From NCBI RefSeq assembly GCF_003334385.1, contig NZ_QOWN01000153.1: DNA of 670 nucleotides; one strand, 5' to 3'. Source of the stretch: Escherichia coli. Its GTDB lineage: Bacteria > Pseudomonadota > Gammaproteobacteria > Enterobacterales > Enterobacteriaceae. Below are positions 1 through 670 of the stretch, one piece after another. A model generated the notes under the pieces. That model saw only the letters and a list, made by a program, of their open reading frames with translations, did not search any database and was not told the DNA's origin. Within the stretch, counting starts at the first letter, position 1; the number at the start of each line of letters is the position of its first letter. Both the position numbers and the translations under genes were made by a program.

Positions 1-670
1 GAGGGGCCGTTCTACTTCCTCTTCACCGACAAGGATGGCGAAAAATACGGTCGCGCAAACAAACTTTCTGGTCTGGATAAGGCGCTGTCTGCTGGGGCTA
101 CTGAAATCACGAAAGAAGAATATTTCGCCCGCAAAAACGGTACATACTCAGGTTCACAACAAAATACTGGTGCATCTGACACGACCGCACAACCAGGGTC
201 AGTAAAAGTTACCGCTGACGAAGTAAACAAAATTATGCAGGCAGCCAATATCAGCCAGCCTGACGCCGATGAACTGCTTGCAGTATCACGTGGTGAATTT
301 GTTGAAGGGATTAGCGACCCGAATGATCCGAAATGGGTTAAGGGGAACCAGACCCGCGATTCTGTGAACCAGAACCAGCAAGAAACGGAACAGAACGACC
401 AGAAAGCGGAACAAAACAGCCCAAATGCGTTACAAAACGAGCCAGAAACGAAACAGCCTGAATCAGTGGCGCAACAGGAAGTGGAAAAAGTCTGCACCGC
501 CTGCGGTCAGACCGGCGGCGGCAACTGCCCTGATTGTGGCGCGGTAATGGGCGACGCAACATACCAGGAAACATTCGATGAAGAGTATCAGCCTGAAGTT
601 CAGGAAGATGATCCGGAGGAAATGGAAGGCGCTGAACATCCACACAAGGAGAACACTGGCGGCAATCAGC
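1..670 (+). CDS. recE: Internal fragment (both ends outside the window) of a RecE-like protein (exonuclease VIII of Rac-type prophages), covering the poorly characterised region upstream of the C-terminal nuclease domain
   Basis: Seen in sequence: frame +1 is open for all 223 complete codons (nt 1-669) with no stop. Codon choice is enterobacterial (CTG, CCG, GCG, AAA, GAA, CAG, AAC preferred) and the product is hydrophilic and protein-like, whereas the minus-strand ORFs translate to Cys/Phe/Ser/Trp-rich strings. Recalled, not searched: the segment [28 protein letters not shown]...[16 protein letters not shown]...[30 protein letters not shown]...[12 protein letters not shown] closely matches my memory of the E. 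coli K-12 RecE middle region, with scattered substitutions. Confidence that frame +1 is coding is about 0.85; confidence in the recE assignment is about 0.6. Confidence 0.7.
361..489 (+). other. Gln/Asn/Glu-rich low-complexity linker within the CDS ([43 protein letters not shown]), probably intrinsically disordered
   Basis: Direct translation of frame +1. The stretch is dominated by Q, N, E, K, P, S, T and has no aromatic or large hydrophobic residues. The DNA is built from reiterated CAG/AAC/GAA/CAA codons. Confidence 0.6.
493..537 (+). other. Putative C4 zinc-ribbon/zinc-knuckle motif CxxC-x7-CxxC ([16 protein letters not shown]) within the CDS
   Basis: Four Cys codons at nt 493-495, 502-504, 526-528 and 535-537 (TGC, TGC, TGC, TGT) in frame +1. 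They are the only Cys in the 223 translated residues and sit in a Gly-rich hairpin-like context (CxxCG...GGG...CPDCG). The spacing is typical of a small Zn-binding ribbon. Metal binding cannot be shown from sequence. Confidence 0.55.
541..669 (+). other. Strongly acidic segment following the zinc ribbon ([43 protein letters not shown])
   Basis: Direct translation: 14 Asp/Glu against 1 Lys (plus 2 His) in 43 residues, interspersed with Tyr/Phe. Compositional call only. Confidence 0.55.

Follow-up and report, generated by a model that had tools for sequence, protein, structure and literature searches.

The 670-nt stretch of Escherichia coli DNA analyzed here (the window) is an internal part of an intact ydfE-type exonuclease gene that a lambdoid prophage carries in its early-left operon, and the point at which it begins to resemble K-12 recE (window nt 262 to 267) marks a real boundary between modules of a mosaic prophage gene family that is very common and already annotated; as such, it is ordinary lambdoid mosaicism. 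Taken as a whole, the explanation that we regard as very probable is that of a modular ydfE-type exonuclease in which nt 262 to 267 is one of several breakpoints between paralogues. The initial annotation had proposed a module swap giving a RecE variant; the module boundary it placed here is real, at about nt 262 to 267, whereas its reading of the gene as a RecE variant is incorrect.

An intact ydfE-type gene in a lambdoid prophage

Frame 1 of the plus strand is open over all 670 bases, and its peptide is the one quoted in the initial annotation. The window matches E. coli 118UI (NZ_CP032515.1; match H1) with 100% identity; there, it covers codons 387 to 609 (window 1 to 670, plus strand; the frame-1 translation begins at residue 387) of a 2,472-nt CDS that encodes an 823-aa protein annotated "exonuclease" (WP_113344110.1; locus L001, 4843 to 7314). 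The host element is a lambdoid prophage integrated beside ompW, in which the gene order runs from the repressor through ydfB, ydfC, dicB, a DUF1482 gene (ydfD-like), the exonuclease gene, an excisionase gene (xis), and an integrase gene (int) to ompW. This arrangement recurs in mEp460, a sequenced temperate phage whose copy is 95.4% identical over the window, and no annealing-protein gene, recT or other, was found between the repressor gene and int in either L001 or mEp460. The phrog_2082 ("exonuclease") profile is matched end to end (residues 1 to 823 of the protein against positions 1 to 823 of 823; 1870 bits); this family includes the "exodeoxyribonuclease encoded by cryptic prophage CP-933P" and the PPompW putative exonuclease of EHEC prophages. 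Nucleotide identity to the window gene is 92 to 95% in phages mEp460, PPompW, Tritos, and HannyBb, whose copies show no material difference from it.

The closest K-12 counterpart is a pseudogene. The first 767 nt of the 118UI gene are 95.3% identical to ydfE of the K-12 Qin prophage (b1577; MG1655, L006, 6079 to 6999), and the two genes share the synteny dicB-ydfD-ydfE-(xis)-int. K-12 ydfE is interrupted by IS2E after about 255 codons, so that codons 387 to 609, the part seen in the window, are missing from K-12; the window gene is the intact form of this truncated pseudogene. This truncation explains why a comparison with K-12 could point to no gene other than recE. A literature search found no paper linking ydfE to an exonuclease, and a search for Rv2179c, the family of the C-terminal domain described below, returned mainly papers on Mycobacterium tuberculosis and none on a prophage gene.

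Other features of the locus were recorded alongside the exonuclease gene. Between ydfC and dicB (L001, 3163 to 3802), where K-12 Qin has the dicF small RNA, there are two hypothetical genes that overlap and run in opposite directions. An antisense open reading frame of 161 aa with a GTG start occupies window nt 12 to 497 on the minus strand; it lies wholly within the sense CDS and, given this complete overlap with an annotated gene, is presumed to be spurious. An Rfam scan of the window gave only a chance-level snoRNA match (E = 0.34), no inverted repeats were found in the window, and the PADLOC defense-system models matched neither the 823-aa protein nor the L003 allele (see below) nor RecE.

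The C-terminal nuclease and the relation to RecE

Beyond the end of the window, the protein terminates in an Rv2179c-like (PF16473) DEDDh 3'-5' exonuclease domain, which Pfam detects at aa 642 to 813 (E = 3.4e-67; model positions 2 to 177 of 177) and which spans aa 640 to 823 in the AlphaFold2 model described below. The Exo I motif IDLET (D646 and E648), the Exo II motif NFD (D746), and the Exo III motif HNALDD (H796 and D801) are all present by motif; the Exo I and Exo II residues also align to 8kel, whereas Exo III was located by motif only, and these five positions are the putative catalytic residues. Sequence comparison links the domain to 8kel, an exodeoxyribonuclease of 227 aa, and the domain's best Foldseek matches in the PDB are RNase T and 3'hExo. 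Rv2179c-like and phage DexA-like DEDDh exonucleases are small, single-domain enzymes of about 170 to 230 aa, whereas here the domain makes up the C-terminal quarter of an 823-aa protein. On this reading, the protein would be an active 3'-5' exonuclease on a RecE-like scaffold, working without a dedicated annealing protein.

RecE of the K-12 Rac prophage is likewise a large protein of a lambdoid early-left operon, and the two proteins have in common a central module of about 150 aa (67% amino acid and 77% nucleotide identity) that comprises a conserved motif, a Q/E-rich linker, a CxxC-x9-CxxC ribbon, and an acidic tail. In both proteins, the C-terminal nuclease is preceded by a long N-terminal region whose function is not known; for RecE, the role of the N-terminal region is described as unknown (PMC11611040). 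They differ in the N-terminal domain, which is not Exonuc_VIII in the window protein; in an extra mini-domain of 50 aa that the window protein carries; in the nuclease, which has another fold and is DEDDh with predicted 3'-5' polarity rather than PD-(D/E)XK with 5'-3' polarity; and in the neighboring recT, which RecE has and the window gene lacks.

We therefore weighed these differences against the proposal that the window gene is a functional recE allele, that is, a 5'-3' PD-(D/E)XK exonuclease acting with RecT, whose domain ahead of window codon 88, and nothing else, had been swapped. Its appeal lies in the roughly 136 central codons of the window that match RecE, in the database records that name some relatives "exodeoxyribonuclease VIII," and in a distant match further upstream to RecE residues of about 270 to 401. 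The central match (67%, E = 2e-57) is to a shared module, however, and is insufficient for RecE membership. The Pfam scan of the 823-aa protein found neither Exonuc_VIII (PF06630) nor DUF3799 (PF12684, PD-(D/E)XK), whereas the same scan of K-12 RecE as a control returned Exonuc_VIII at aa 2 to 178 (E = 1.4e-97) and DUF3799 at aa 615 to 850. The NCBIfam RecE equivalog NF007259 scored 273.7 bits against a cutoff of 1269, with a match limited to aa 246 to 625; the similarity to recE stops at gene nt 1867, and the locus has no gene for RecT or any other annealing protein. With both RecE Pfam domains absent, a DEDDh C terminus, and no adjacent recT, the gene cannot be described as a variant of RecE that carries another upstream domain, and we consider a functional recE allele extremely improbable. 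On the grounds of domain content, NCBIfam score, the missing recT, and the existence of a ydfE counterpart, the window gene was rejected as a recE allele.

The junction with K-12 recE and the modules around it

The K-12 reference was the 866-aa RecE of a K-12 derivative (L002, 3513 to 6113), where recT directly follows recE. A BLASTP search of window codons 1 to 87 against the entire protein found nothing detectable (best E = 8.8), in agreement with the initial annotation, which had noted that these codons do not resemble K-12 RecE. Codons 88 to 223, in contrast, align with RecE residues 454 to 574 at 91 of 135 positions, interrupted by one 14-aa gap (E = 2e-57); the earlier statement that this part tracks K-12 RecE closely is correct in that the match is real but too strong as to degree, as the identity is only 67 to 77% with an indel and not near-identity. 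At the nucleotide level, a sensitive blastn search gave a sole significant HSP, window 267 to 670 against recE 1365 to 1726 (77% identity, including a 42-nt indel; E = 2e-96), and all remaining HSPs between the window and recE had E values of 2.6 or more. The nucleotide alignment to recE switches at TGACGCCGATGAACTG (window nt 262 to 277), and the mosaic junction was placed at codon 88 (D474; window nt 262 to 267, plus strand) from the HSP start at nt 267 and the BLASTP start at D474, opposite RecE D454. Identity to RecE in 20-aa intervals is 15 to 25% at aa 451 to 470 and 65 to 90% at aa 471 to 500. The abrupt drop anticipated near nt 255 to 265 was thus found by both protein and nucleotide alignment, and neither uniform nor gradually falling identity describes the data; the change at the junction is a step, not a gradient. 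Base composition across the junction showed no step. When whole genes were compared, similarity to recE was confined to gene nt 1425 to 1867 (recE 1365 to 1765; 77% identity), and a second junction with recE therefore lies at gene nt 1867, 39 nt past the end of the window.

For an AlphaFold2 model of the 823-aa protein, built from a 50-sequence alignment, the mean pLDDT was 69 and the pTM 0.30, values expected for a beads-on-a-string protein. The N-terminal domain (aa 1 to 206) and a helical mid-domain (aa 241 to 345) are confident folded units; short helices at aa 458 to 467 and 475 to 482 and a zinc-ribbon-like hairpin near aa 549 to 568 were modeled at lower confidence. The C-terminal domain and the zinc ribbon reached only moderate confidence because the alignment is shallow there. 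Segments with pLDDT below 50, which we read as predicted disorder, fall at aa 207 to 236, 346 to 384, 439 to 457, 465 to 473, 499 to 548, and 569 to 637. From this model, the protein would consist of folded modules strung together by disordered linkers. When the whole model was searched with Foldseek, the only matches were DEDDh enzymes, aligned through the C-terminal domain, and the N-terminal domains had none. The mid-domain is a distant homologue of RecE residues of about 270 to 401 (aa 246 to 374 against RecE 270 to 401 in the NCBIfam RecE model; E = 8.8e-14), which means that the ydfE-type and RecE lineages are collinear over a longer stretch, with the mini-domain present in only one of them.

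That mini-domain opens the window (nt 1 to 150, plus strand; aa 385 to 436, approximately), and both the model and its conservation mark it as a folded beta-beta-alpha-beta-alpha unit, with a pLDDT of 93 to 96 in the whole-protein model and 89.5 when modeled alone. Its consensus is ERxGPFY...GxKxGRANKxxGLxKALxxGxxEIsxEEyxARKxGT, and the R, GPFY, G, and EI are invariant in 15 diverged Enterobacterales proteins. Pfam and NCBIfam assign no family to codons 1 to 87, for which the only hints were subthreshold (SHOCT, with E of about 0.02 in 4 of 15 members, and DUF5417), and the mini-domain had no significant structural match. Among the representatives recovered, it occurs only with a ydfE-type N terminus and never in Exonuc_VIII-type proteins; this also answers which architectures carry the 87-aa upstream segment, a question raised in the initial annotation.

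The mini-domain is followed by a low-complexity linker, predicted to be disordered (nt 151 to 213, plus strand; aa 437 to 457, with pLDDT below 50 at aa 439 to 457), which holds a breakpoint at about nt 201 to 203 with respect to alleles of the L003 type, whose N terminus is RecE-like, and by a short helix segment (nt 205 to 261, plus strand; the model helix at aa 458 to 467) that the alignments show to be common to L003-type alleles, whereas K-12 RecE and L004 have other sequence there. The junction at nt 262 to 267 adjoins the segment of pLDDT below 50 at aa 465 to 473. From there on, BLASTP and blastn define the central module common to RecE (window nt 262 to 670 and on to gene nt 1867, plus strand; aa 474 to 622, corresponding to RecE aa 454 to 588), which matches positions 465 to 585 of the NCBIfam RecE model (E = 1.7e-60). 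Near its start lies a motif with the family consensus LAAxRGExxxGISDPxDPxW (nt 289 to 336, plus strand), one of the few strings to stay conserved when 50 diverse family members are reduced to a consensus. Compared with K-12 recE, the window has a 42-nt (14-aa) insertion, seen as the alignment gap, at nt 391 to 432 (plus strand) in a linker rich in Q, N, and E that is predicted to be disordered. Imperfect 18-nt direct repeats occur in this linker at nt 408 to 425, 445 to 462, and 580 to 597 (repeat family D1), which suggests that the linker may be prone to indels. Between the repeats, a predicted Cys4 zinc ribbon, CxxC-x9-CxxC (nt 493 to 540, plus strand; moderate pLDDT of about 67), was recognized in the sequence; the Cys4 motif is kept in K-12 RecE at residues 514 to 529 (CNACGQTGGDNCPDCG), in a part of RecE whose function is regarded as unknown, and it probably binds zinc. 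RecE also gives a weak match to Zn_ribbon_3.

Module exchange and abundance across the family

Breakpoints were read from pairwise alignments of four alleles and of database representatives. Two of the alleles, L003 and L004, combine a RecE-like N-terminal half with a DEDDh C terminus. The 118UI gene is 97.4% identical to L003 over the 3' 1,114 nt (from gene nt 1359, window nt 201), and its 5' 1,358 nt cannot be aligned to that allele; with L004, the identity is 93.1%, starting at gene nt 1450 (window nt 292) and reaching the end of the gene. L003 itself is 92% identical to K-12 recE over L003 nt 339 to 792 and 75% identical over L003 nt 1192 to 1837. Because sister alleles are 93 to 97% identical downstream of the breakpoints and unalignable upstream of them, the junction is attributed to recombination and not to gradual decay. 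Another locus, L005 of E. coli VL40 (1309 to 4517), has a recE-family gene that is split by IS600 into pseudogene fragments; the broken recE is followed by a gene for a Gam-family host-nuclease inhibitor and then an AAA ATPase gene, in a different layout of the early-left operon.

The alternative in which no recombination took place, and codons 1 to 87 are a fast-evolving linker sharing ancestry with RecE residues 402 to 453 so that the junction is simply the edge of a conserved block, draws on the larger-scale collinearity given by the mid-domain homology, on the prediction that about half of the 87 codons are disordered, and on the tendency of linker regions to acquire indels. Codons 1 to 50, however, are a confidently folded and conserved domain, and that mini-domain is exclusive to the ydfE-type N terminus; identity changes as a step, and alleles that are nearly identical downstream turn unalignable upstream at nt 201, 267, and 292, which requires exchange. 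We consider this alternative unlikely. Exchange between prophage paralogues is the preferred reading, in which nt 262 to 267 would be one of several module-exchange breakpoints, the others being at about nt 201, about nt 292, and gene nt 1867. Those at aa ~453, ~474, and ~622 lie in or at the edge of predicted disordered segments, and recombinants would survive since crossovers that fall in linkers do not disrupt the folded modules; the modules would thus be reassorted whole.

Word-indexed searches with the 87-aa segment and with a profile of the mini-domain returned almost only short E. coli fragments, which say little on architectures, and the survey of the family comes instead from an exhaustive search of representatives (253 proteins at E ≤ 0.001), followed by local BLAST against the module sequences. 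All four combinations of N-terminal arm (RecE or ydfE type) and nuclease (PD-(D/E)XK or DEDDh) exist among these representatives: a RecE-type arm with PD-(D/E)XK in K-12 RecE; a RecE-type arm with DEDDh in L003, L004, and P0066; a ydfE-type arm with DEDDh in the window gene; and a ydfE-type arm with PD-(D/E)XK in P0128, which has the mini-domain and in which Pfam confirmed DUF3799. Among 50 long family members, Exonuc_VIII was found in 20, DUF3799 in 12, and the Rv2179c-like domain in 9; at least 29 of the 50, for example P0067, have no nuclease domain recognized by Pfam. The module made up of the motif and the zinc ribbon, at 67 to 95% identity, is found joined to PD-(D/E)XK, to DEDDh, or to no recognizable nuclease.

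Two representatives carry rearrangements of their own. In P0066 (805 aa), residues 1 to 453 are 88 to 100% identical to K-12 RecE and the DEDDh C terminus is 98% identical to that of 118UI, which suggests that the nuclease domain was swapped recently, at the downstream junction. P0059 (527 aa) is a natural deletion in which aa 368 is joined to aa 664; the window region and the Exo I motif are gone, and the protein is probably a defective derivative, showing that the window region can be lost.

The arrangement in the window is widespread. Among 5,426 complete E. coli genomes, 3,613 contain at least 80% of the window in one contiguous piece, and the arrangement is also present in 17 sequenced phage genomes, so the junction cannot be an assembly or sequencing chimera of a single genome, and we dismiss that explanation. 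Window nt 1 to 200 occur at 5,232 places in 3,298 of the 5,426 genomes, compared with 1,966 genomes for the K-12 recE equivalent (the 200 nt upstream of the junction), from which it follows that the window arrangement is the commoner of the two in E. coli. Many genomes hold multiple copies of the window segment. A 77-aa fragment that is 100% identical to part of the window has been deposited as Gardnerella vaginalis on a 233-nt contig (P0029); the likeliest source is contaminating E. coli DNA in that assembly.

A survey of lambdoid phages reports genes for DnaQ-type 3'-5' nucleases near int, as well as "RecE-2" proteins, distant RecE relatives that have no recognizable nuclease domain (PMC12315714, Genome Res 2025). 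The window gene fits the DnaQ-type genes in position and domain type, and the domain content of the present family agrees with the RecE-2 and DnaQ-type genes of the survey; neither a RecE-like scaffold fused to a DnaQ-type domain nor the breakpoints mapped in the present analysis are described in the survey's main text.

For annotation, the results correct a trap: proteins of this family are often labeled "exodeoxyribonuclease VIII" or RecE from the shared middle module, and the proteins so mislabeled have another nuclease, of opposite predicted polarity, and no RecT partner. K-12 is a poor reference here, as its own ydfE is truncated by IS2, whereas about 60% of complete E. coli genomes carry the intact gene. 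The module map indicates that the scaffold and the nuclease swap independently of each other and that breakpoints fall only within predicted disordered linkers; it is a clean if unsurprising case of lambdoid mosaicism and offers a modest lead only on the function of the RecE N-terminal region. What interest remains lies in the unannotated conserved mini-domain and in the coupling of one scaffold to nucleases of opposite predicted polarity, although neither will greatly surprise specialists in lambdoid mosaicism. Under the preferred reading, the N-terminal and central scaffold would serve either type of nuclease, presumably by binding a partner or DNA. More specifically, and quite tentatively, the N-terminal and central region of the RecE/ydfE type could be a scaffold that works with any type of nuclease by binding a common partner or DNA structure, with the mini-domain as a binding module of the ydfE lineage; we think this is possible but doubtful. 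If it is true, scaffold chimeras would provide a handle on the role of the RecE N terminus in linear-linear recombination.
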